From Acidobacteriota bacterium (lineage in GTDB: Bacteria > Acidobacteriota > Polarisedimenticolia > Gp22-AA2), in NCBI GenBank assembly GCA_046758905.1, contig JBHIBC010000005.1:4656-68655 (forward strand): a stretch of 64,000 bases of DNA, in the 5' to 3' direction. A program made the position numbers and the translations under genes. Shown here one piece after another: positions 4,908-44,822 of this stretch. The notes under the pieces are model-generated. The model searched no databases and was not told the DNA's origin. It saw nothing but the letters and a program-made list of their open reading frames with translations. How positions within the stretch are numbered: position 1 is the first letter of the stretch; each line of letters opens with the position of its first letter.

Positions 4908-5585
4908 ATGGCCAGCTTTCACCACCGCCTGCTCCGCGGCGCGGCGCCGGTCTGGCGCGCCGCGATCCGGCACCCGTTCCTGCTCCGGACGGCCGCTGGC
5001 ACCATCTCCCGGAGGGCCTTCGCCCGCTGGATGCGCCAGGACTACCTCTACGTCCGCTCGCTCGTCCCGTTCCTCCACATGGTCGCCGCCGGCTCCCCGC
5101 CCGGGGATCGCCGCGCCTACGCCGAGGCGATCGTCATCCTGCACGAGGAGATCGACCTCTTCGAGAGGATGGCCCGGGCCCGGGGCATCCGGCTGGGGGC
5201 GGGCCGGCGGGCGGACGAGGCGGCCATGGAGCCGGCCTGTCGCGCCTACGTGTCGTTCGTGATGGCGGTCGGGCGCGACCGCCCGCACCCCGAGGCGGTC
5301 GCCGTCCTGTACGGGCTCGAGAGGATCTACCTCGACTCGTGGCGCGGGGTCCGTCGGCGCCTCGGGAGGCGCCGGAGCCCCTGGAGGCCGTTCATCGAGC
5401 GGTGGTCCGGCCCGGGGTACCGGGCCTGGGTCGGTTGGCTCGGCCGGGCGGTCGATCGGGCGGCCCGCGCCGCCTCGCCCGCGACGCGTGCGAGGATGGT
5501 GCGGCTCTTCCTCGACACGGCGCGCCACGAGGTCCGCTTCTGGGACATGGCGCTCAGCGGCGGGCCGCGGCGCCTCCGCTCTTAG
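4908..5585 (+). CDS. TenA/PqqC-family protein (thiaminase II-like)
   Basis: 225 aa, starts 20 nt after the SDR stop. TenA_C-like helical bundle signature (WMRQDYLYVRSLVPF..., conserved acidic/aromatic pattern). Co-directional with the SDR gene. Confidence 0.65.
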   Translation: MASFHHRLLRGAAPVWRAAIRHPFLLRTAAGTISRRAFARWMRQDYLYVRSLVPFLHMVAAGSPPGDRRAYAEAIVILHEEIDLFERMARARGIRLGAGRRADEAAMEPACRAYVSFVMAVGRDRPHPEAVAVLYGLERIYLDSWRGVRRRLGRRRSPWRPFIERWSGPGYRAWVGWLGRAVDRAARAASPATRARMVRLFLDTARHEVRFWDMALSGGPRRLRS

Positions 5586-6531
5586 GCCTCGGCCGGCGCT
5601 TCTCCGCCAGGACGGCGAAGGTCTCGAAGATCATCTGCAGGGCGAGGAAGAGGGTGGCGCCGGTCGGATCGAGCGACGGGGCGACCTCCACCAGGTCCAT
5701 CGCGCGGATCGGGAGCTGCTGCACGAGGCCGCGCGTCAGATCGATCACCTGCCGGCTTGACAGGCCCCCGGGGCCCGGCGCGCCGGCCCCGGGCGCGCAC
5801 GCCGGGTCGGCGACGTCGATGTCGATCGTCAGGTAGACGCTCCCGATCCCCTTCAGGCGGTCCCGGGCCCGTCCGACCACGGCCTCCACCCCGCTCCGAT
5901 CGATCTCCCGCGCCGGGACGAACAGGATCCCCTTCTCCTTCATGAACGCCAGCTCCTCGACGTTGTAGGAGCGGGTCCCCAGGATCAGCAGGTGCTCCGG
6001 CTTCAGGCGGCCCCCGTCGAGCGCGCGGCGGGCGGCGCAGGCGCTCGACAGCCTCGAGCCGTCGTAGGTGTCGAACAGGTCGGGGTGGGCGTCCAGCAGG
6101 ACCAGGCCGAAGCCCTCCGGGAAGTGCGTGGAGAAGCCGCGCACCAGCGGGATGGTGAGCGAGTGATCGCCGCCGATCGACAGCACGAAGGCGTCGCCGG
6201 CGAGCGCCGCCGCCCGGAGCGTCGCGGCCGCCGCGCGCTCGATGCGGGCGAAGTAGTCCAGCCGGGCGCGGTCACGGTCGCGGCCTCCCGCCCCGGGATC
6301 GGGCGGCGCGTCCCCCGCGTCGCGCACCCGCAGCAGCGAGCGGTCGACCACGTACCCCGTCTCGGAGATCGCCGGGGAGGAGGCGGAGATCTCGCGCAGC
6401 CGCGCGGGGGCCTCCGCCGAGCCGCCCCGCCAGCAGGCTCCCCCCTCGTACGGGAGCCCCGTGATCACGACATCGTAAGGCGGCGCGAGATCGGGATCGG
6501 CGAGGCCGCCCCAGAGGTGGCGTCGGATCAT
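5554..6531 (-). CDS. Arginase/agmatinase/formiminoglutamase-family ureohydrolase
   Basis: Mn-binding motifs of the ureohydrolase fold: GGDHSLT, DAHPD, TIDIDVADP. Convergent 32-nt overlap with the TenA-like gene 3' end. Confidence 0.8.
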   Translation of the reverse strand: MIRRHLWGGLADPDLAPPYDVVITGLPYEGGACWRGGSAEAPARLREISASSPAISETGYVVDRSLLRVRDAGDAPPDPGAGGRDRDRARLDYFARIERAAAATLRAAALAGDAFVLSIGGDHSLTIPLVRGFSTHFPEGFGLVLLDAHPDLFDTYDGSRLSSACAARRALDGGRLKPEHLLILGTRSYNVEELAFMKEKGILFVPAREIDRSGVEAVVGRARDRLKGIGSVYLTIDIDVADPACAPGAGAPGPGGLSSRQVIDLTRGLVQQLPIRAMDLVEVAPSLDPTGATLFLALQMIFETFAVLAEKRRPRPKSGGAAARR

Positions 6532-31937: not shown

Positions 31938-32014
31938 GGGCCCATAGCTCAGTCCGGTAAGAGCAGCTGACTCATAATCAGTTGGTCCCTGGTTCGAATC
32001 CAGGTGGGCCCACC
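31938..32014 (+). tRNA. tRNA-Met (anticodon CAT; elongator-type, Ile-lysidine alternative not excluded)
   Basis: Cloverleaf folds by hand. Acceptor GGGCCCA/TGGGCCC, D-arm GCTC..GAGC, anticodon stem GCTGA/TCAGT with loop CTCATAA (CAT at 34-36), T-arm GGTTCGAATCC, discriminator A, CC encoded. G1-C72 paired, so not an initiator. Confidence 0.85.
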
Positions 32015-32075
32015 GACCGCTCCCTTCCCCCGGTCCGGCGTTCCGCGTTCCCGGGGAGGGCGGTCCCGCGACCGC

Positions 32076-32708
32076 TCAGGCTCCCTTCCTCCGCGTGTAG
32101 ACGATCTCCAGGTTCTTGAATTCCTTCCCGTCGGGGGTCGTGGCGAACATCTCGACGACGTACTTGTCGTCGCTGATGATCCGGGTGATCGACCGCATGG
32201 TCTCCTCCGAGCCGGTGGCCGGGTTGATGTAGCTCCCGCTCATCCGCAGGACCTTCCCGTCCTCCTCGCAGGTCCCCTCGCTCGGGTACATGAAGGTGCC
32301 CATCGAGTCGATCCAGATGTCGGTGTGCTTGCGCTTGAGGTTGTCGTACCCGCTGATGCCGATCCCCTCGAACTTCTGGCCCATGTACTCGCCCGTGAAG
32401 GTCGTCTGGAGGAAGCGGCCGCCGAGCGCCAGCTTTTGGACCGCCGTCCCTCTCGAGACCGTCGGCTCCGCGTCCGGGCCGCCCGTCCAGTTCTTCACCA
32501 CGGCGTCCCATGTGCCGGCGAGCTTGGCGAGATGCGCGTGGTGCTCGCCGGGCTGGGCGTACTTGGCGAACGCCGCCATGATGTCCTGCTGCTCGGGACT
32601 CGCTCCGGCCTTCTCGCCCGTCTCCCGCCCGCCGGCCAGAGCCGGGCCGGAGGCGAGAAGGGCGACGCCGACGAGCGCCGTCACTGTGAGAAGAGATCCT
32701 GTCCTCAT
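32076..32708 (-). CDS. Secreted hypothetical protein, DUF1579-like
   Basis: 210 aa; AGGGAGGG RBS; signal peptide MRTGSLLTVTALVGVALLASGPALA. The ...LAKLAGTWDAVVKNW... motif resembles DUF1579; assignment by recollection only. Confidence 0.5.
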   Translation of the reverse strand: MRTGSLLTVTALVGVALLASGPALAGGRETGEKAGASPEQQDIMAAFAKYAQPGEHHAHLAKLAGTWDAVVKNWTGGPDAEPTVSRGTAVQKLALGGRFLQTTFTGEYMGQKFEGIGISGYDNLKRKHTDIWIDSMGTFMYPSEGTCEEDGKVLRMSGSYINPATGSEETMRSITRIISDDKYVVEMFATTPDGKEFKNLEIVYTRRKGA

Positions 32709-32904
32709 GGAGACCCTCCCTGAATGGCTCCGCGGACGGAGGAGCCGGGGAAGCGACTTGCGAGTGGAACGGGCGCAGGCTAGCCCGGGAGCTCCCGCCG
32801 CGTCAAGAGGCCGACCCCGCGGGGCCGGGCGTATACTTCGGGCCGCCCATCTCGCACCGACCCGGGGGGCGCGCGCCGACCCCTTCGGAGAACAGGAGGG
32901 CACC

Positions 32905-34572
32905 ATGAACCGGGACCGATTCTCGGCCGAAACGCTCGTCTACGTCCTCGTCGGGATCGTCTTTCTGTGGATCTTCATCGCCTATTATCCGGCGGCCTTC
33001 CCGCAGGCCTCGATCCGCCTGGGCGTGACGCGCGACGAGGCCCGTCGGATCGCCGCCCGCTTCCTCGAGGAGCGCGGCTACGACCTCTCCGGGTACGAGA
33101 GCGCCGTGGTCTTCGACGCCGACAACACCGGGGCCGTCTTCCTGCAGAAGACGCAGGGGATGGAGCGGGCCAACCGGCTGATGGAGGGGGACGTGCCGAT
33201 CTGGCGCTGGCGCTGCCGCTGGTTCCGCTCCGCTGAGAAGGAGGAGTACCGCGTCTACGTCGACCCGTCCGGGGAGGTGATCCGCTTCCTGCACGCGATC
33301 GAGGACGACAAGGAGGGCGCCACCATCCCGCAGGAGGAGGGCGAGACGATGGCGTCGGAGTTCGTGGCGGGCGTGATGGGGATCGACCTGTCGGAGTACG
33401 AGCGGGTGGAAGCGTCCACCAAGAAGCAGGAGAACCGGACCGACCATCACTTCGAGTGGAAGAGGACCGGCTTCGAGATCGCCTGGAAGGGGGGGGACCC
33501 CGAGGCCGGGACGGGGACCCTGCGGGTGCGGGCGAGCGTGCGCGGGGACGAGGTCGGCGGCGTGCGGCGCTATTTCAAGACCCCGGAGGCGTTCGCCCGC
33601 GAATTCGAGAAGGTCCAGTCGCGGGGGGTGCTGCTCGCGCTCATCAGCACCGTCCTGATGTTCCTGACCGGCGTCGCGGCGCTGGTGGTGTTCATCATCA
33701 AGTACAAGGCGGGCGCCATCCACTGGCGGTTCGCCCTCGTGTTCGCGGGGCTGATCATGGCGCTGTACACGCTGCACACCCTCAACGCCTTCCCCGTGGT
33801 CAAGTCGAGCTACCAGACGACCATGGACTACGCCGTGTTCGTCGGCATCGTGGCGGCCGCGACCGTGCTGGTGAGCGTGATCTACGGCGGGTTCATCCTG
33901 TTCACCGGCGCCTCCGGCCACGCCCTGACCCGCGACCTGTACCCGAGCAGCCTGGGGACGCTCGAGCGGCTGCTGCGGGGGCGGATCTTCACCCGCTCGT
34001 TCTTCTTCTCCTCGGTCCGCGGCTACGCGCTGGCGTTCTTCTTCCTCGGCTACGTGACCCTGTTCTACTTGTTCGGACGCCGGTACCTGGGCGTCTTCCT
34101 GCCCGCCGAGGGGCCGTACTCGAACCTGCTCGGGACCCACCTGCCGTGGCTGGCGCCGCTGGCGGTCTCGCTGCTCGCGGCGGTGTCGGAGGAGTTCGTC
34201 TCCCGCCTGTTCTCGATCTCCTTCCTGAAGCGCTACCTGAGGCTGACCTGGCTGGCCCTGCTGATCCCGGCGGCCATCTGGGCCTTCGCACACTCCAGCT
34301 ATCCGGTGTTCCCCGTCTACGTGCGGGGGATCGAGCTGACGATCGCGGGGGTGATCTTCGGGATATTCTTCCTGCGGTTCAACATCATGACCTGCGTCGT
34401 GGCCCACTACGTGATCGACGCGGTGTTCCTCGGGATGCCGCTGCTCCGGTCGGGACACACCTACTACGTCGTCACCGGCGCCGTCGTCTGCCTGCTCGCG
34501 GCGGTCCCGCTCCTGGTCGGGATGACCGGGATGGCGCGCAACGAGCCGGATTCGGGCCCGGCCGCGGCGTAG
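32905..34572 (+). CDS. CPBP-family intramembrane metalloprotease (CAAX protease/Abi-like) with about 250-aa N-terminal extension
   Basis: AGGAGGG RBS. CPBP motifs 1-3: SEEFVSRLF (EExxxR), WAFAHSS (FxxxH), VAHYVIDAVF (HxxxN/D), within a multi-TM C-terminal half. Confidence 0.7.
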   Translation: MNRDRFSAETLVYVLVGIVFLWIFIAYYPAAFPQASIRLGVTRDEARRIAARFLEERGYDLSGYESAVVFDADNTGAVFLQKTQGMERANRLMEGDVPIWRWRCRWFRSAEKEEYRVYVDPSGEVIRFLHAIEDDKEGATIPQEEGETMASEFVAGVMGIDLSEYERVEASTKKQENRTDHHFEWKRTGFEIAWKGGDPEAGTGTLRVRASVRGDEVGGVRRYFKTPEAFAREFEKVQSRGVLLALISTVLMFLTGVAALVVFIIKYKAGAIHWRFALVFAGLIMALYTLHTLNAFPVVKSSYQTTMDYAVFVGIVAAATVLVSVIYGGFILFTGASGHALTRDLYPSSLGTLERLLRGRIFTRSFFFSSVRGYALAFFFLGYVTLFYLFGRRYLGVFLPAEGPYSNLLGTHLPWLAPLAVSLLAAVSEEFVSRLFSISFLKRYLRLTWLALLIPAAIWAFAHSSYPVFPVYVRGIELTIAGVIFGIFFLRFNIMTCVVAHYVIDAVFLGMPLLRSGHTYYVVTGAVVCLLAAVPLLVGMTGMARNEPDSGPAAA

Positions 34573-34680
34573 GGGATCCTCGCGGGCGGCGCGGACGGAG
34601 GGCTCGATCGCGCCCCGCCGGCTCATCCGGCGAGGGGAGATCGGCAGGGCCGGCCGGAGCGTCCAGGGAAGGGTCGAGCC

Positions 34681-35823
34681 TCACGCTCGCCGGGACTCCC
34701 GGCCCCGCTGCAGCCAGAAGCGGAGTCCCCCCCGGTGCAGGGCGCGCTCGAAGTGGTCGCCGTCGGGCGACAGCCCGTCGTATCCGCGGCGCAGCAGGAC
34801 CTCGATCATCGGCTCGAGCTGCCGGCCGTAGCGGCGCATGCAGGCCTCGGGATGGATCCCGGGCCAGGAGTAGCACGACACGACCGTGCGGCGGTGCCCG
34901 GAGGGGATGGAGGGCGGGACGGTGGCGTCCCAGTCCGGGTCGTCCGGGGCGAACAGGTACTTGTCGAGGTTCCCCTGCGGGATGCCCTCCAGGCCGCGCA
35001 CCACCGGCGGGTCGGTGTCGAGCGTGTACGGATCGACCGCCAGGTCGGCGACCACGGCGTGCTCCGGGAGCCAGCCCAGCCAGGCGTTCGGGATCACCGG
35101 CACGGATGGGTCGTAGCGCTGGCTGGCGTCGACCAGGACGTCGGTGCGGCGCATCAGCCGCTCCATGGTGGCGGCGTGGACCGTCCTGTTGCGGCCGGCG
35201 GTCAGGACGATGACGCCCGGGCCGCCGCCCTCGATGTGCCGGTTGTTGCGCTCGACGCTCCCGAGCTTGGTCGCGGCGTCGACCGCGTCCTTCCCGACCA
35301 TCCCGGAGCCGAGGACCAGCACCCGGATCGGGCCGCCGTCCGGCTTCATGAGCCCGGGGCAGCGCCGCTCCAGCACGTCGAAGGCCGCCTCCAGGCCGTT
35401 CCAGGCCACCGCCCGCATGTTCTCCACCAGGCGCTCGCTCGAGTCGTTCTCGATCCCGTCGAGCGAGATCGCCCGCAGCCCCAGCTCCCGGAGCAGGGCG
35501 ACGCGCCGCGGGCGGGTCGGGAAGTGCAGCATCGAGATGAGGCAGCCCCCCCGGCGCAGCAGGCTGAGCTCGCGCGGCTCGGGCGAGCGCAGCACGAGCA
35601 CCAGATCCTGACCGAAGGCCTCCTCCCGCGAGCACTCCCGCACGGCCGCGCCGGCGCGCCGGTAGTCGTCGAGGCTGTATCCGGAGCGCGAGCCGCACCC
35701 CGCCTCGAGGTGCGCGGTCACCCCCCGCCGGGCGAGGCGCCGGACGAACTCCGGGAGGAAGGCGCGCCGCTCCCCCCGCTCCTTCATCATGCGCGGGAAG
35801 CCGATCGTCCTCGGCAGGCTCAC
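34681..35823 (-). CDS. AlaDH/PNT-domain NAD(P)-dependent dehydrogenase (CEOS/saccharopine-dehydrogenase-like), paralog A
   Basis: GTG start at 35823..35821 overlapping the stop of the upstream paralog (GTGA). N-terminal AlaDH/PNT-N pattern (GFPRMMKERGERRAFLPEFVRRLARRG...VLVLRSP), Rossmann VLVLGSGMVGKDAV, distinct C-terminal SCYSWPG region. 380 aa. Confidence 0.6.
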   Translation of the reverse strand: MSLPRTIGFPRMMKERGERRAFLPEFVRRLARRGVTAHLEAGCGSRSGYSLDDYRRAGAAVRECSREEAFGQDLVLVLRSPEPRELSLLRRGGCLISMLHFPTRPRRVALLRELGLRAISLDGIENDSSERLVENMRAVAWNGLEAAFDVLERRCPGLMKPDGGPIRVLVLGSGMVGKDAVDAATKLGSVERNNRHIEGGGPGVIVLTAGRNRTVHAATMERLMRRTDVLVDASQRYDPSVPVIPNAWLGWLPEHAVVADLAVDPYTLDTDPPVVRGLEGIPQGNLDKYLFAPDDPDWDATVPPSIPSGHRRTVVSCYSWPGIHPEACMRRYGRQLEPMIEVLLRRGYDGLSPDGDHFERALHRGGLRFWLQRGRESRRA

Positions 35824-37008
35824 GACGGGAGCCTCGCGGCCGCCGGCGGCGCGCCCCCGCCGGCCGCCGAGGTCGTGCGGCTCGCGGGCGGCAGGCGGGA
35901 CAGCCGCGCCCGCGCGATCGCCCGCTCGAAGAACTTCCCTGCCGGTGAGATCTCGGCGACGCCGCCCTTCTCGATCAGCACGCGCAGGATCGGCCGCAGC
36001 TGCCGGCCGTAGACCTCCATGCACTCGCGAGGATACAGGCCCGGCCAGGAGTAGCAGGAGACGACGTGACGGCGGTGCCGGCGATCCAGCATCGGGGGGA
36101 GATCGTCGAACGCCGGATCGTCGGGCGCGAAGACGTACCCGTCGAGGTCCCCCTGCGGGATCCCCTCGATCCCCTTGACGAGGGGAGGGTCGCTCGCGAG
36201 GTCGTAGGGGTCGACCGACAGATCCAGGATGACGGCGTGCCGCGGAAGGTACGCGATCCAGCGGTTCGGGATGATCGGGCGGCTGGGGTCGGGCCGCCGC
36301 GTCGCGTCCACCAGGACGTCGGTGCGCTCCAGGATCTCCCGCATCAGCGCCGCGTGGGCGGTGATGTCGTGGTCCACCACACTGACCTGCACCCCCGGGG
36401 ACGCCCGCGGCGGCCAGCCGCGCCCGCAGCTCCTCGTCGCCGTAGCGGACCGCCGCGCGCACCGCGCGGCTCCCCACGGCCCCCGCCCCCAGCACGCTCA
36501 CGCGGATCGGCGGCCGCGCCGGGTCGTCGAGCCGGCCGCCGGGATAGGTCCCGCGCAGGGTCCGGAACGCCGTCTGGATGCCGTTCCAGGCGACCGCGGG
36601 CAGGTTCTCGACGAGGCGCCGCCCGGTGTCGTCGCTGATGGCGTCGAGCGAGATCGCCTCGAGGCCGAGCGAGCGCAAAAGCTCCGCGCGCTACGGCCGG
36701 GTCGGGAAGTGCAGCATGGACATCAGGCATGCGCCGCGCCGCATCGAGCGGATGTCCTCGTCGCGCGGGCAGCGCAGCACCAGGACGTAGTCCTGCCGGA
36801 AGGTCTCCTCGCGGGAGGCGAGGCGGGCCCCCGGTGCGGTCTCCAGATAGTCGCGCTCGTCGAACCCCATCCCGGAGCCGTAGCCGCGCTCCAAGACGGC
36901 CGCGGCCCCCCGGCGCTGGAGCAGGGAGATGAACTGCGGCAGGAAATCGCGCCGCTCCCCGGGCTCCTCCCGCATCCGGGGGAAGCCGACCCGCAGTCTC
37001 GGTGTCAT
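35820..37008 (-). pseudogene. AlaDH/PNT-domain dehydrogenase paralog B, disrupted (in-frame TAG at 36693..36691 plus +1 frameshift in a G5 run near 36396)
   Basis: Three ORF pieces (36691..37008, part of 34681..36678 frame, 35820..36392) together align collinearly to paralog A. The TAG replaces the Arg codon in conserved MLHFPTRP(R)R; the frame changes inside CCCCGGGGGTGCAG. Confidence 0.5.
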
Positions 37009-37082
37009 CTCCCTCCCCGGGCGCCGCGCGGCCGCGCTCCGGCGGCGTCCGTCCGGCGCGCCGTCCGCTCCCTCGGGGGCCT

Positions 37083-37913
37083 CTACGCCGCCGGCTTGCG
37101 GTACTTGTGCACGAACCGGTGGATGAAGTAGCGGTGGATCGGGGCGTCGTCCTCCCGCCCGTCGAAGTCGTAGGTGTCGCCGGGGTTCACCAGCAGGTCG
37201 GATGTCCCGGCCAGCTCGAACCCGGCCGCGGTGATCTCCCGGATCACCAGGTCCTCGTTGATCCGGTGGTACGGCTCGTCCACCCCCTCCTTGGGCGTGT
37301 ACGCCTCGACCACCCCGAGGATGCCGCCCGGCTTGAGGGCCCGCAGCAGCTCCGGCAGGACCGCGGTGCGCGCCGCCTCGTCCCCGAGGTCGTGATAGTT
37401 GCGGACCGTGATCATCACGTCGATGCTGTCGTCCGCCAGCTCGCTCAGGGGGCCGACGATCTCGACGTTTCTCAGCCCCCCGGCCTCGATCCGCTCGTTC
37501 AGCGCCTCGCGGACCCGCTGCTCGTACTTCTCCTGCGTGTAGAGCGGCCCGAGCACGGCCACGACCTTCCCGTCGTCTCCGACCAGGAAGGAGAGGAGGT
37601 GGGTGTGGTAGCCGCGGCCCGGCCAGACGTCGGCGACGGTCATGCCCGGCCTGATGCCGAAGAACTCATACACCTCGATCGGCTTGAACCCGCCGTCGCG
37701 GTAACGGTCGTCCTCGGTGCGGGACGGGTGGTCGAGCACGCTCCGGTCGAGGGCCTGCGCCCTGTGCGCCGGCTCCGCCGGCTCTTCCGGCTGCTGCTTC
37801 ACCTCCACCGTGCACGCCGCCCCGGCGGCCCACAGGAGCGTCAGGCAGGCCAGCGCGAGCAGCCGAGGCGCGGCGCCGCGGCGACGGGACCCATCGAGAC
37901 ACGCTTCGGACAT
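37083..37913 (-). CDS. Exported class I SAM-dependent methyltransferase-like protein
   Basis: Start at second ATG (37913) with AAGGAGG 7 nt upstream. Signal/lipobox-like LLALACLTLLWAAGAAC. Methyltransferase fold motifs (GMTVADVWPGRGYHT, LKPGGILGV). Confidence 0.65.
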   Translation of the reverse strand: MSEACLDGSRRRGAAPRLLALACLTLLWAAGAACTVEVKQQPEEPAEPAHRAQALDRSVLDHPSRTEDDRYRDGGFKPIEVYEFFGIRPGMTVADVWPGRGYHTHLLSFLVGDDGKVVAVLGPLYTQEKYEQRVREALNERIEAGGLRNVEIVGPLSELADDSIDVMITVRNYHDLGDEAARTAVLPELLRALKPGGILGVVEAYTPKEGVDEPYHRINEDLVIREITAAGFELAGTSDLLVNPGDTYDFDGREDDAPIHRYFIHRFVHKYRKPAA

Positions 37914-38175
37914 GGGAGTCCTCCTTGCTTCATGGGACATGGTTTGTCGGCCTCGTGAGGGCCATAGGGTAGGCGGATCCGGCTCTGCTGTCCAGGCCGG
38001 CCGGGACGGGCCGGCGCCCCGTTCGGCGTCCGTCCTTACGGGGGCGCGGCCCGGTCGTATCCTCCGAGGTCGAGCCGGCGAGTCCGTCCTCTATCAGCGA
38101 TGCCGTCCGGCCCGCGCCGAGGGGACGGCCCGCGCCGAATGGACGGCCCGCGCCGGCCGCCGGGAGGGCCCGAAC

Positions 38176-40689
38176 GTGCGCCACGGTTCCCACCGAGTCG
38201 CGGCTCGCTGCGGCTCGCTGCTGGCGGTCTTGTCGCTCGCCGCCTGCCGCGGGGCGGCGGCCCCGGGGCCGGGGACCGTCCGCCTGGTCGATCGCCGCGC
38301 CGCCGCGCTCGTGAGCGGCACGCCCGGAGGAGCCGGAGGGAGGCCGGGCGAAGCGCCGGGCGGGGGCCCGCCGCCGGCCGGGGCCGAGTGGCGCTTCGAG
38401 CGTCCGCCTCCAGGGCCCGGGACCGGCCACCGGGATCGGGCGGGGGCCGGGAAGATCGGGGCCGCGCGCGACTGGGAGCCGGGCCCCGGGGTCGCCGGCC
38501 TCGCCGTCCATGACGGGAAGCTGATCGGCCGCAGCAGCACCGATTTCCCCCTCATCCACCTCGAGCGCGGGGCGGGCCTCGACGATCAGGACCTGCTGCA
38601 CGAGATCCGGGTGCGGCTGCGGGTCTCGGCCGGCGCGAACCTGTCGCTCGCGCTGGATGATTCCGAGACGGTCGACCTGGTGAGGAAGGTGGCGGGCGCG
38701 CGGACCTTCCCATGGAGGCTCGCCACCCCGATCGTGCCGGGCGGCGAGCTCAGGACGTACGTCCTGCGGAGCCGCTGGCCGCACCGCGGAGCGGACATCC
38801 GGCACATCCTGATCCGGCCGACCGACGCGCCGGGGGCGACCTTCGAGATCGAGTCGGTCCGGCTCGTCTTCCGCAGACAGTACCTGGCCTCGATCCCCTC
38901 CGGGGCGGGCTGGCAGGGGCTCGGAGGGATCTATCGCGAGACGATCGTCTCCCGGGCGCCCGAGTCGATCCGGTTCGAGATCGACCTGCCCGACCGTCCG
39001 TGGCTCGACCTGGCGATCGGGACGATCGAGGGCGCTCCCGTGACCTTCCGCGTGACGGTGAGCCCGGCCGGGCCGGGCGCCGCCCCGGGGCCCGAGGGGA
39101 CCGGCGGCGGCGCGATCGTCCTCGAGCGCACGGTCACGACGCCGCGCCGCTGGGAGCCGGCGCCGATCGACCTGGCGTCATTCGCGGGGCGGCGCGTCGG
39201 GCTGACGCTGTCGCTGGCCGCCGATGCTCCGGGCAGGATCGGTTTCTGGGGCTCTCCGGTGGTGCGCCGGCGCCGAGCGCCGCCGGGCGGCCGCGGGCGC
39301 GGAGCGCCGCCGCGGGGCGTCATCCTGATCATGGCCGACACGCTGCGCCGGGACCACCTCGACGCCTACGGGTACGCCCGCGCCACCGGCCCCGCGCTGC
39401 GGGGGATGGCGGAGGAGGGGGCGCTGTTCGCCGACTGTCTGACCCAGGCGACCTGGACCAAGGTCGCGGCGCCGTCGCTCGTCACCTCGCTCTACCCGGC
39501 CGCGCACGGGGTGAGGGAGTTCGACCACCGCCTGCCCGGGAGCGCGGTGACGGCGGCCGAGATCTACCGCGACGCCGGGCACGCCACCGTCGCCTACTCC
39601 TCGAACCTGTTCACCGGGCGGTTCTCCAACATGCACCAGGGGTTCGAGGAGCTGCACGAGGACGGCTCGCTCGCCGATCCGGCCTCCAGCAAGACCTCGC
39701 GCGAGTATATGGACCGCGCGCTCGCCTGGATCGAGGCCCACCGGGACGTCCCGTTCTTCGTCTTCCTCCACCTCTACGACCCCCACGATCCGTACCGGCC
39801 GGGCCCGCCCTACGACGCGATCTGGGCCGACCCGTCGCGCCGCGAGGAGCACGAGCGGCAGGCGAGGCGGGTCCGCGAGCTGATCGCCGACCCCCAGCTC
39901 AGGAGGTTCGGCATGCCCAGCCGGGAGGAGCTGGCGAAGGCCGGCATCGACCCGGCGGCCTACGTGGGACGGGAGCGCGACCTGTACGACGGCTCCATCC
40001 GGGGGATGGACGCCGAGGTCGGCCGGCTCCTGGAGCGCCTGCGCGGGCTGCGGCTCGCGGACGCGACCCTCGTCGCCTTCGTCAGCGACCACGGGGAGGA
40101 GTTCCTGGAGCACGGCGAGATGTTTCACGGGCACACCGTCTACGGCGAGCTGACCGACGTGCCGCTGATCCTCTGGGGGCCCGGCGTCGTCCCGCGCGGC
40201 GCCGTGGTGGGCGAGACGGTCGAGCTGGTCGACGTCCTCCCGACGCTGCTCGAGCTGAGCGGCCTGCGGCCGCCGCCCGGCGCGCAGGGCCGCAGCCTGG
40301 TGCCGCTTCTGGGCGCGGCTCGAGCGCCTCCGCCCGGCTGGGAGAGCCGCCCCGCCCTCGTGGAGAAGGCGTCCATCGAGGACGTGGCCGGCCCGGGGCA
40401 CCGCGAGGAGGAGTCCTACGCGGCCGTGACCCGCGCATGGAAGCTGATCCACAACGTGAAGCGCCCCGTCGGCCGGCCGGAGTTCGAGCTGTACGATCGC
40501 CGCGCCGATCCGCTCGAGCGGAACGACGTCGCCGCGCGGCACCCCGCGGTGGTCGAGCGCCTGTCGCGCGAGCTGGCGGCGCGGCGCGATCGTGCCGCGG
40601 CCGGCCGGCTGCCGCCGGGCCCCGAGACCGCCGAGGAGATCGACCGGGAGCGGCTGGAGCGCCTCCGCGGCCTCGGCTACATCCGCTGA
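38176..40689 (+). CDS. Sulfatase-like hydrolase (alkaline-phosphatase superfamily) lipoprotein with large N-terminal domain
   Basis: GTG start with GGGAGGG 7 nt upstream; lipobox LSLAAC. C-terminal about 480 aa has the sulfatase/AP-superfamily pattern (VILIMADTLRRDHL...GYATVAYSSN...LHLYDPHDPY...VSDHGEEF). The canonical C/S-x-P-x-R formylglycine motif is not apparent (TQATWTKVAAPSL). Confidence 0.7.
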   Translation: MRHGSHRVAARCGSLLAVLSLAACRGAAAPGPGTVRLVDRRAAALVSGTPGGAGGRPGEAPGGGPPPAGAEWRFERPPPGPGTGHRDRAGAGKIGAARDWEPGPGVAGLAVHDGKLIGRSSTDFPLIHLERGAGLDDQDLLHEIRVRLRVSAGANLSLALDDSETVDLVRKVAGARTFPWRLATPIVPGGELRTYVLRSRWPHRGADIRHILIRPTDAPGATFEIESVRLVFRRQYLASIPSGAGWQGLGGIYRETIVSRAPESIRFEIDLPDRPWLDLAIGTIEGAPVTFRVTVSPAGPGAAPGPEGTGGGAIVLERTVTTPRRWEPAPIDLASFAGRRVGLTLSLAADAPGRIGFWGSPVVRRRRAPPGGRGRGAPPRGVILIMADTLRRDHLDAYGYARATGPALRGMAEEGALFADCLTQATWTKVAAPSLVTSLYPAAHGVREFDHRLPGSAVTAAEIYRDAGHATVAYSSNLFTGRFSNMHQGFEELHEDGSLADPASSKTSREYMDRALAWIEAHRDVPFFVFLHLYDPHDPYRPGPPYDAIWADPSRREEHERQARRVRELIADPQLRRFGMPSREELAKAGIDPAAYVGRERDLYDGSIRGMDAEVGRLLERLRGLRLADATLVAFVSDHGEEFLEHGEMFHGHTVYGELTDVPLILWGPGVVPRGAVVGETVELVDVLPTLLELSGLRPPPGAQGRSLVPLLGAARAPPPGWESRPALVEKASIEDVAGPGHREEESYAAVTRAWKLIHNVKRPVGRPEFELYDRRADPLERNDVAARHPAVVERLSRELAARRDRAAAGRLPPGPETAEEIDRERLERLRGLGYIR

Positions 40690-43919: not shown

Positions 43920-44822
43920 ATGAGCTTCGATCCCCGAAAGGCGGTGCTGCGCGGGCCCGACCACTTCGAGCGGTTCCGCGTTCCCGATTCCGCCGCGCGG
44001 CTGGCCGACCTGCGACTCCCCCCCGGGGAGATGCTGCTCGTCGTCGAGCGCGGCGGCGAGAGGCGTGCGCTGCTCGTCTCGCAGATGGCCTACCACCACG
44101 CCGCCCAGGGGAGGCTGGCGGGCCGGCCGTACCTGGTCTCGTTCTGAATGATCTGCCACTCGGGGGTCGGTCTGACCCCCGTCGTCGAGGGGCGGCTCCA
44201 CCACTTCAGCGCCGGGGGCCTGCACAACGGGCTGATCCTGCTGATCGACGACGAGACCCGCACCTACTGGGACCACATCACGGGCGAGGCGGTACGCGGC
44301 CCGCTCCGCGGCAGGCGGCTCGAGAGTTGGGCCGTGCGGATGACCACCGCCGGTGCGGCGCTGGCGGGCGATCCGGATCTAGCGATCTCCCGCTCGGGGC
44401 GCGGTCTTCTGGCCCGCTGGCTCGGGGGCCTGGCCCGGTGGCAGGTGCGCGGGCGCGGCCTGATGCCCTTCTTCTTCCATCGCACCATGGAGCCGAAGGA
44501 CCGTCGCCGCCCGACGATGGACCAGGGCCTAGGGGTCGTGGTCGGGACGCGCGCCCGGTACTACCCGCTCGAGGCGCTCCGCGCGGGAGCGAGGGCGGGG
44601 ACGGGCGCGCCTGCCGGCCTGGCCGACGACTGGTCGGGGCGCAGGCTGCGCCTCTTCATCGACCCGGCCGACCGCATCCCGGCCGCGGAGTGGGAGGACG
44701 GCGGCCGGCCGTTCCAGATCTTCACCCGCTGGTACGGCTTCTCCTTCACCTATCCCGGCTGCGAGATCTACCGGGGGCCGGGAGGGGGACCCGGGGGCGC
44801 CGGATCCGGGACGGCGGTGTAG
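43920..44822 (+). CDS. DUF3179-family protein with in-frame TGA (candidate selenocysteine) at 44145..44147; UxxC in place of the family CxxC
   Basis: ORFs 43842..44147 and 44148..44822 are in the same frame and together span one DUF3179-like domain (...ERGGERRALLVSQMAYHHAAQGRLAGRPYLVSF-TGA-MICHSGVGL...GGLHNGLILLIDDETRTYWDHITGEAVRGPL..). The TGA sits where family members (as I recall them) have the first Cys of (V/L)TYCPLC. Start uncertain: ATG 43920, 43878 or 43842. Confidence 0.55.
44161..44181 (+). other. bSECIS-like mRNA hairpin 13 nt downstream of the in-frame UGA (8-bp GC stem, apical loop GGUCU)
   Basis: CGGGGGUC-GGUCU-GACCCCCG. Loop GGUCU is the same as the SelB-contacting apical loop of E. 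coli fdhF SECIS. The UGA-to-loop distance (about 24 nt) is within the bSECIS range. Confidence 0.45.

Follow-up and report, generated by a model that had tools for sequence, protein, structure and literature searches.

The window, by which we mean the whole 64,000-nucleotide stretch of DNA analysed here, carries two neighbouring genes for paralogous enzymes of the AlaDH/PNT superfamily. The downstream gene (A) is intact; the upstream gene (B) is interrupted twice, by an in-frame TAG codon and by a change of frame in a run of five G. We regard it as probable (roughly 0.78) that B is a real pseudogene in a conserved B→A pair, and that its inactivation occurred very recently or is still segregating in the population.

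Both genes are read from the minus strand, and the stop codon of B overlaps the start codon of A in the tetranucleotide GTGA, as a preliminary description of this DNA had stated (Table 1). This layout is consistent with translational coupling of B and A. The GAGG sequence ahead of A could also serve as a ribosome-binding site of its own, in which case A would be translated without B or coupling. A scan for promoters and terminators was uninformative, the DNA being GC-rich. The product of A matches the NCBI protein MFQ5876389.1 (ACE5JH_01670) exactly, and none of 99 conserved A-type columns was mismatched. Direct reading of the sequence also bore out the two lesions reported for B. The TAG lies six codons past the invariant His of B, whose counterpart in the alignment with alanine dehydrogenase is the catalytic His95. 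It falls before the NAD-binding domain, and a product of 105 aa can therefore not be an enzyme. The change of frame takes place within GTC CCC GGG GGT GCA. When one G was deleted from the G5 run, B read AAGVPGVQVSVVDHD (over a longer stretch, AAGVPGVQVSVVDHDITAH) and continued to the TGA that overlaps A. Reconstructed in this way, and with the TAG read as a sense codon, B comprised 395 aa and was 53–71% identical to intact orthologs of 375–395 aa. A and reconstructed B were 55% identical over 364 residues, more than the 45–50% estimated earlier by eye.

Table 1. Features of the gene pair, in positions of the window.
Feature	Position	Strand	Reading and evidence
Gene A, intact downstream member	34681..35823	minus	ORF and translation: GTG start, 380 aa, TGA stop, uninterrupted
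GAGG, candidate ribosome-binding site of A	35832..35835	minus	8 nt upstream of GTG; read from sequence
GTGA overlap of B stop TGA (35822..35820) and A start GTG (35823..35821)	35820..35823	minus	Sequence
Gene B, disrupted upstream member	35820..37008	minus	ATG at 37008; three-frame translation
GGAGG, Shine-Dalgarno-like, just upstream of the ATG of B	37012..37016	minus	Read from sequence; inferred role
In-frame amber TAG, codon 106 of B	36691..36693	minus	Context SMLHFPTRP-TAG-RAELLRSLGLEAISLD
G5 run with one extra G	36392..36396	minus	Shifts the frame of B by +1 after Gly205 and before Val206
105-aa ORF, N-terminal fragment of B	36691..37008	minus	GenBank 'hypothetical protein' MFQ5876391.1 / ACE5JH_01680
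190-aa ORF in the shifted frame, starting from a GTG, C-terminal fragment of B	35820..36392	minus	Translation

A set of 5.8 billion proteins was searched with the reconstructed B, and intact proteins of up to 71% identity were recovered, mostly from Anaerolineae/Chloroflexota; the best of these B-type orthologs is closer to B than A is. The preliminary description had proposed that orthologous loci be compared for an intact second copy. From 100 loci that were fetched we obtained 92 B-type and 75 A-type genes, all uninterrupted, and B was followed by A in 74 loci besides the window. The B→A module was present in about 75 genomes, Anaerolineae and others, and 476 relatives of the pair were found among GTDB species genomes. 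Bellilinea caldifistulae GOMI-1 and Thermanaerothrix solaris are examples of carriers that are in culture. Within the recovered loci the median identity was 0.64 from A to A and 0.60 from B to B, and 0.46 (up to 0.55) from A to B. The nearest neighbour of every A and every B sequence was always of its own type, and the same genome (L005) was nearest to both the A and the B of the window, which points to an ancient duplication and to a pair that moves as a unit. Judged by these identities, A and B are two old, reciprocally exclusive ortholog groups, and the B of the window is orthologous to the upstream one of the pair. The closest relative found was a JGI contig (L101), whose B is 70.8% and whose A is 67.8% identical; its stop/start overlap is also 4 nt, as ATGA. 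A complete Anaerolineales genome (L002) contained a B-type and then an A-type gene with an overlap of 8 nt. Clustering of the flanking ORFs at about 95 loci showed no conserved flanking genes beyond the pair itself: TetR, an MBL-fold protein and acyl-CoA dehydrogenases were each near the pair in only 5–7 of these loci. The context therefore gives no clue to the substrate.

The orthologs show which states preceded the lesions most simply. At the column of the TAG, 74 B-type orthologs had Q (32), E (13), G (10), K (4), L (4), A (3) and R (2), and the A-types had K (29), Q (10) and R (8). The codons used there by B-type orthologs were CAA (17), CAG (15) and GAG (11). The amber had been placed at a conserved Arg in the preliminary description; this has to be corrected, because the column is variable, with mostly Gln in B-types, and is in fact the x of a T-R-P-x-R motif, the other positions of which are all invariant. 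It is the residue right after it that is the invariant Arg. The closest relative has CAG at this site, and given the codons of the orthologs a single C-to-T change from CAG to TAG is the simplest origin of the amber, thus a CAG ancestry seems probable. At the site of the frame change the orthologs read V/I-P-G-V-Q with an invariant Gly and stay in frame (for example GTC CCC GGC GTG CAG; CCC GGA GTC in the closest relative), and an insertion by slippage from G4 to G5 fits the sequence of the window. No stop or shift was found at either site in any of the 92 B-type orthologs.

Synonymous sites were saturated at the identities available (≤70% at the amino acid level), and a relative-rate regression and a conserved-column test were therefore used in place of dN/dS. 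When B–B identity was regressed on A–A identity for all genome pairs, the residual of the window was −0.004 (SD per genome 0.013; rank 31 of 75). Among the 97 columns with a conservation of 95% or more in B orthologs, the B of the window was mismatched in one, by Q237R in DATQRPD. The orthologs had 1.39 mismatches on average, and 69% of them had as many as the window or more. Both tests would detect only divergence beyond a few percent extra. By these measures B shows no excess divergence relative to A and no sign of relaxed constraint, which is compatible only with a very recent inactivation, if it is a pseudogene. An old pseudogene is excluded by the two tests, and a very young pseudogene and an intact gene with errors would look alike in them.

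The lesions were also present in a second assembly. The Logan contig SRR29324601_126547 (7,130 nt) is 100% identical to positions 31985..39111 of the window (7127 nt), both lesions included, and its gene caller likewise made two products of B, one of 105 aa and one of 186 aa. A literature search for this run found nothing. Both assemblies were probably built from the same reads; their agreement therefore argues against an assembler artefact and not against a read-level one, and a systematic read error or a minority or strain-specific allele would be compatible with it. A misassembly by collapse of the two paralogs is unlikely, as exact words common to A and B reached 20 nt at most and each 31-mer of B occurred just once in the window.

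To place the two lesions in the background of the window as a whole, genes were called from codon-position GC and about 40 of them were scanned against Pfam. In about 40 other genes the Pfam domains were covered over their full length, e.g. Peptidase_M2 (4–581 of 581), Peptidase_S9_N (1–414 of 414), Asn_synthase (2–353 of 354), Sigma54_activat (1–167 of 168) and the E1_dh and transketolase domains. No other gene-breaking lesion was found among the about 40 genes checked in the 64 kb; B alone was broken. From the gene lengths, the probability that two random errors in 64 kb hit the same gene is about 2%. TAG was the terminator of at least 11 Pfam-supported genes and is an ordinary stop in the window. 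The only tRNA found in the window was tRNA-Met, and neither a suppressor tRNA nor an Rfam recoding element was detected there. An alternative genetic code or a suppressor tRNA was rejected on these grounds.

It is unlikely, in our view, that the organism has an intact B and that the lesions are sequencing or consensus errors, i.e. a miscalled base and a miscounted homopolymer in DNA of 72% GC. Such errors would be in keeping with a B that is indistinguishable from a functional ortholog apart from its lesions, with the C4G5 homopolymer context of one of them, and with a fully intact partner A in a pair that is otherwise strongly conserved. The identical sequence given over 7.1 kb by a second assembler speaks against them, and a contig of 7 kb from a 31-mer-based assembly, which is how Logan contigs are made, implies that the reads were accurate and that the k-mers were supported repeatedly. 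The errors would moreover have to meet in one 1.2-kb gene and spare all the others that were checked, and a stop produced by miscalling C as T does not belong to the homopolymer type of error.

Far less probable still is that the broken locus yields useful products, either as separate fragments of B or as a fusion that starts past the TAG. An ORF of 665 aa (34681..36678) does run in the N-terminal frame of B past the shift and stays open into A, and GenBank as well as the Logan annotation list the fragments of B as separate proteins. However, the 105-aa fragment breaks off within the substrate domain, and the one of 190 aa, which holds the remaining Rossmann domain and the SCYSWPG motif, is without the glycine-rich loop of the Rossmann fold. 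The fusion would hold about 190 out-of-frame residues. That this stretch is open is unsurprising at 72% GC, where we estimate that about 1.3 stops would be expected and that the probability of none is about 0.28; a fusion or split architecture was found in none of the orthologs. The least credible of the alternatives is that B is made by recoding, with read-through of the amber and a +1 slip on CCC-GGG-G that would yield exactly VPGVQV. The column of the TAG is indeed the one that varies most in a motif invariant elsewhere, CCC GGG G permits +1 re-pairing in the P site by tRNA-Pro or tRNA-Gly, slippage at CCC-N being a recognised +1 mechanism, and B has kept all its conserved residues but for the single mismatched column. 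The recoding sites are not conserved, though: at both of them the orthologs stay in frame and use sense codons, and TAG ends many genes of the window. Two inefficient events in series would also give a negligible yield. The TGA within a DUF3179 domain elsewhere in the window has a SECIS-like hairpin and belongs to a (seleno)protein family, and B has nothing comparable. That a bypass of the lesions gives a low, possibly regulated amount of full-length B, which would set the B:A ratio of a heteromeric enzyme, is accordingly hardly to be expected.

Under the preferred reading of a very recent pseudogenisation, an ancient B→A module of two paralogous enzymes of the AlaDH/PNT superfamily would have lost its upstream member through two common types of mutation, a single-base change to TAG, most simply from CAG (Gln), and the expansion of a G4 run by one G. 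Translation of B would then end at codon 106, just past the region of the catalytic His, and the product would be without the NAD-binding domain, with A remaining intact and provided with its own candidate ribosome-binding site. The lesions would thus be true alleles and not read errors, and A is presumably still expressed. In carrying a nonsense mutation and a homopolymer frameshift, the commonest types, among intact orthologs and intact flanking genes, B resembles an ordinary bacterial pseudogene; unlike one, it shows no detectable build-up of further substitutions. The pseudogene would thus be either very young or unfixed in the population. The preliminary description had offered a decaying duplicate, or pseudogene, as one possible state of B. 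The pseudogene is supported by the agreement of two assemblies, by B being the sole broken gene among those checked, by the occurrence of both lesions in it and by the intact orthologs. The decaying duplicate is not, as A and B belong to old ortholog groups and B shows no measurable decay apart from its lesions. No relative of B above 71% identity was found; the best were at 66% among genome contigs, 62% among metagenome contigs and 71% in the set of 5.8 billion proteins. The comparison was therefore one of orthologs, and not of alleles with a near-identical intact B.

The assignment of an AlaDH/PNT N-domain to both proteins proved correct. Pfam PF05222 (AlaDh_PNT_N) scored 67.4 bits for A and 49.7 bits for reconstructed B, both above the cut-off of 30.4. 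The NAD-binding C-domain (PF01262, cut-off 23) scored 24.6 bits for B and 16.6 bits for A. Searches of the PDB with a single sequence and with a 15-sequence profile returned only alanine dehydrogenases and domain I of transhydrogenase, with E-values from 1e-17 to 1e-6. A likeness to CEOS and saccharopine dehydrogenase had been suggested earlier, and the Lys1-type saccharopine dehydrogenase and CEOS do belong to the same broad AlaDH/PNT superfamily. Yet no saccharopine dehydrogenase was found at E ≤ 1 with the single sequence or the profile, nor among the top 50 Foldseek matches of an AlphaFold2 model of A (pLDDT 85.6, pTM 0.83), and a literature search on CEOS and saccharopine dehydrogenase returned nothing relevant. 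Alanine dehydrogenase and transhydrogenase domain I were closest in the sequence, profile and fold searches alike. The predicted fold of A and B is thus like that of AlaDH and PntA domain I, and not demonstrably like that of CEOS or saccharopine dehydrogenase.

The best match by sequence, profile and fold was L-alanine dehydrogenase (PDB 1pjb, 2vhx, 2eez), with E of about 1e-17 and TM of about 0.66 over the full length. A and B share with it the two-domain architecture with a GxGxxG Rossmann domain, this motif being present in both, and all A- and B-types keep the residues equivalent to His95 and Asp269. They differ from it in several respects. The identity was only about 20%, and the alanine dehydrogenase model TIGR00518 scored 56.1 bits for A and 43.4 bits for B against a cut-off of 391.85. 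The catalytic Lys74 (1pjb numbering) aligned with an Arg79 that is invariant in both paralog types, the C-terminal approximately 100 residues of A and B, including the invariant SCYSWPG, were left unaligned in the sequence searches, and the genes form a conserved paralog pair. Domain I of PntA (PDB 1x13, 1f8g, 4izh) is likewise related by superfamily and fold (E 1e-12 to 1e-16, TM about 0.55–0.66). However, NF006942 and TIGR00561 gave only 60 and 44 bits against cut-offs of 383 and 444, A and B are without a membrane domain, and no pntB-like gene was found among the conserved neighbours. By these scores and residues, A and B are a distinct, uncharacterised branch of the AlaDH/PNT superfamily and not bona fide alanine dehydrogenases.

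The two paralog types differed at the end of strand beta2 of the Rossmann fold, where B-types have D-x-D and A-types have G-R-N (Gly-Arg-Asn). An Asp at this position is typical for NAD, and G-R-N looks NADP-like. This suggests NAD as the cofactor of B and NADP as that of A. The A and B proteins presumably work together, and a heteromer of NAD-type and NADP-type subunits for some reaction is more likely than a bypass of the lesions.

For annotation, the two 'hypothetical protein' fragments of B in GenBank should be merged into one pseudogene, or into a single gene should the reads contradict the assembly. Provided that the lesions are real, this metagenome-assembled genome is a natural knockout of one partner in a strongly conserved pair, and an A on its own may last for some time or remain functional. 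The module is widespread and uncharacterised, it has no close solved structure, and its contrasting cofactor signatures deserve attention. Current understanding is not challenged by these results; their value lies in the corrected annotation and in the pointer to a two-gene dehydrogenase module.

Besides the TAG of B, the window had just one in-frame stop, the TGA at 44145..44147, inside the DUF3179 domain mentioned above. The Pfam score of this domain rose from 34 to 81 bits once the TGA was read through. The hairpin, with a SECIS-like GGUCU loop, lies just downstream of it, and over the whole of the folded sequence the energy was no better than that of shuffled controls (z = −0.04). In NCBI this protein and its homologs are called 'DUF3179 domain-containing (seleno)protein', and by these sequence features the TGA is a known selenocysteine site and not an error.

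Among the best 80 genome matches, the tandem pair, in which the broken dehydrogenase-like gene B lies upstream of its intact paralog A, was found overwhelmingly in Anaerolineae/Chloroflexota, whereas the window belongs to an Acidobacteriota MAG. The GC3 of the window pair was like that of its neighbouring genes, and one further Acidobacteriota MAG (locus L009) also contained the pair. Because of this distribution, the neighbour-like GC3 and the presence of the pair in L009, the sequences suggest an old inter-phylum transfer in which the pair would have moved as a unit.

The two gene types differed in the residues where strand beta2 of the Rossmann domain ends. In the window pair (34681..37008) and in the homologous loci fetched from other genomes and contigs (L002-L097), the B-types consistently carried D-x-D, whereas the A-types carried G-R-N. 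Judged by these motifs, the B-types would be NAD-like and the A-types NADP-like, and the difference hints at either a heteromer using two cofactors or two coupled reactions. Within the window A and B were 55% identical, the highest value among 75 same-genome pairs (median 46%). Both a GC-driven convergence of the amino acids and a partial gene conversion are possible explanations for this high identity. The longest exact word common to the two window genes was 20 nt and was located directly upstream of the in-frame TAG of B. The N-terminal frame of B stayed open past the frameshift, across the remainder of B, and continued in frame into A, which creates an ORF of 665 aa; this open frame across both genes is probably an accident of the 72% GC.

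In other MAGs the A-type partner was seemingly split or truncated (L014, L068 and L018, in the latter at about 5117..6287, where it was recovered as two tblastn pieces), and therefore breaks in the B-A pair appear to occur outside the window as well. Five loci (L016, L024, L053, L077 and L079) contained a B-type and no adjacent A-type, although in each of them the sequence extended 2.5 kb or more beyond the B-type gene on its downstream side. Thus B-types can exist without a neighbouring A.

Elsewhere in the window, a DUF3179 gene contained an in-frame TGA. Its product is a known selenoprotein, since the NCBI name for the product and its homologs reads 'DUF3179 domain-containing (seleno)protein'. 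When the TGA was read through, the Pfam score of the product increased from 34 to 81 bits; the deposited protein of 224 aa corresponded to the portion 3' of the Sec codon. A hairpin, GGGGGUC-GGUCU-GACCCCC, was located 19 nt downstream of the TGA, and we take its GGUCU loop to be similar to the SECIS loop of E. coli fdhF. The fold energy of the whole folded segment with this hairpin was not better than that of shuffled controls. The window also contained a single tRNA gene.

Coordinates of further features in the window
Feature	Position	Strand	Remark
tRNA-Met (CAT)	31938..32014	+	between DUF1579 gene and HAD hydrolase gene
665-aa ORF	34681..36678	-	
DUF3179 gene	43920..44822	+	in-frame TGA at 44145..44147
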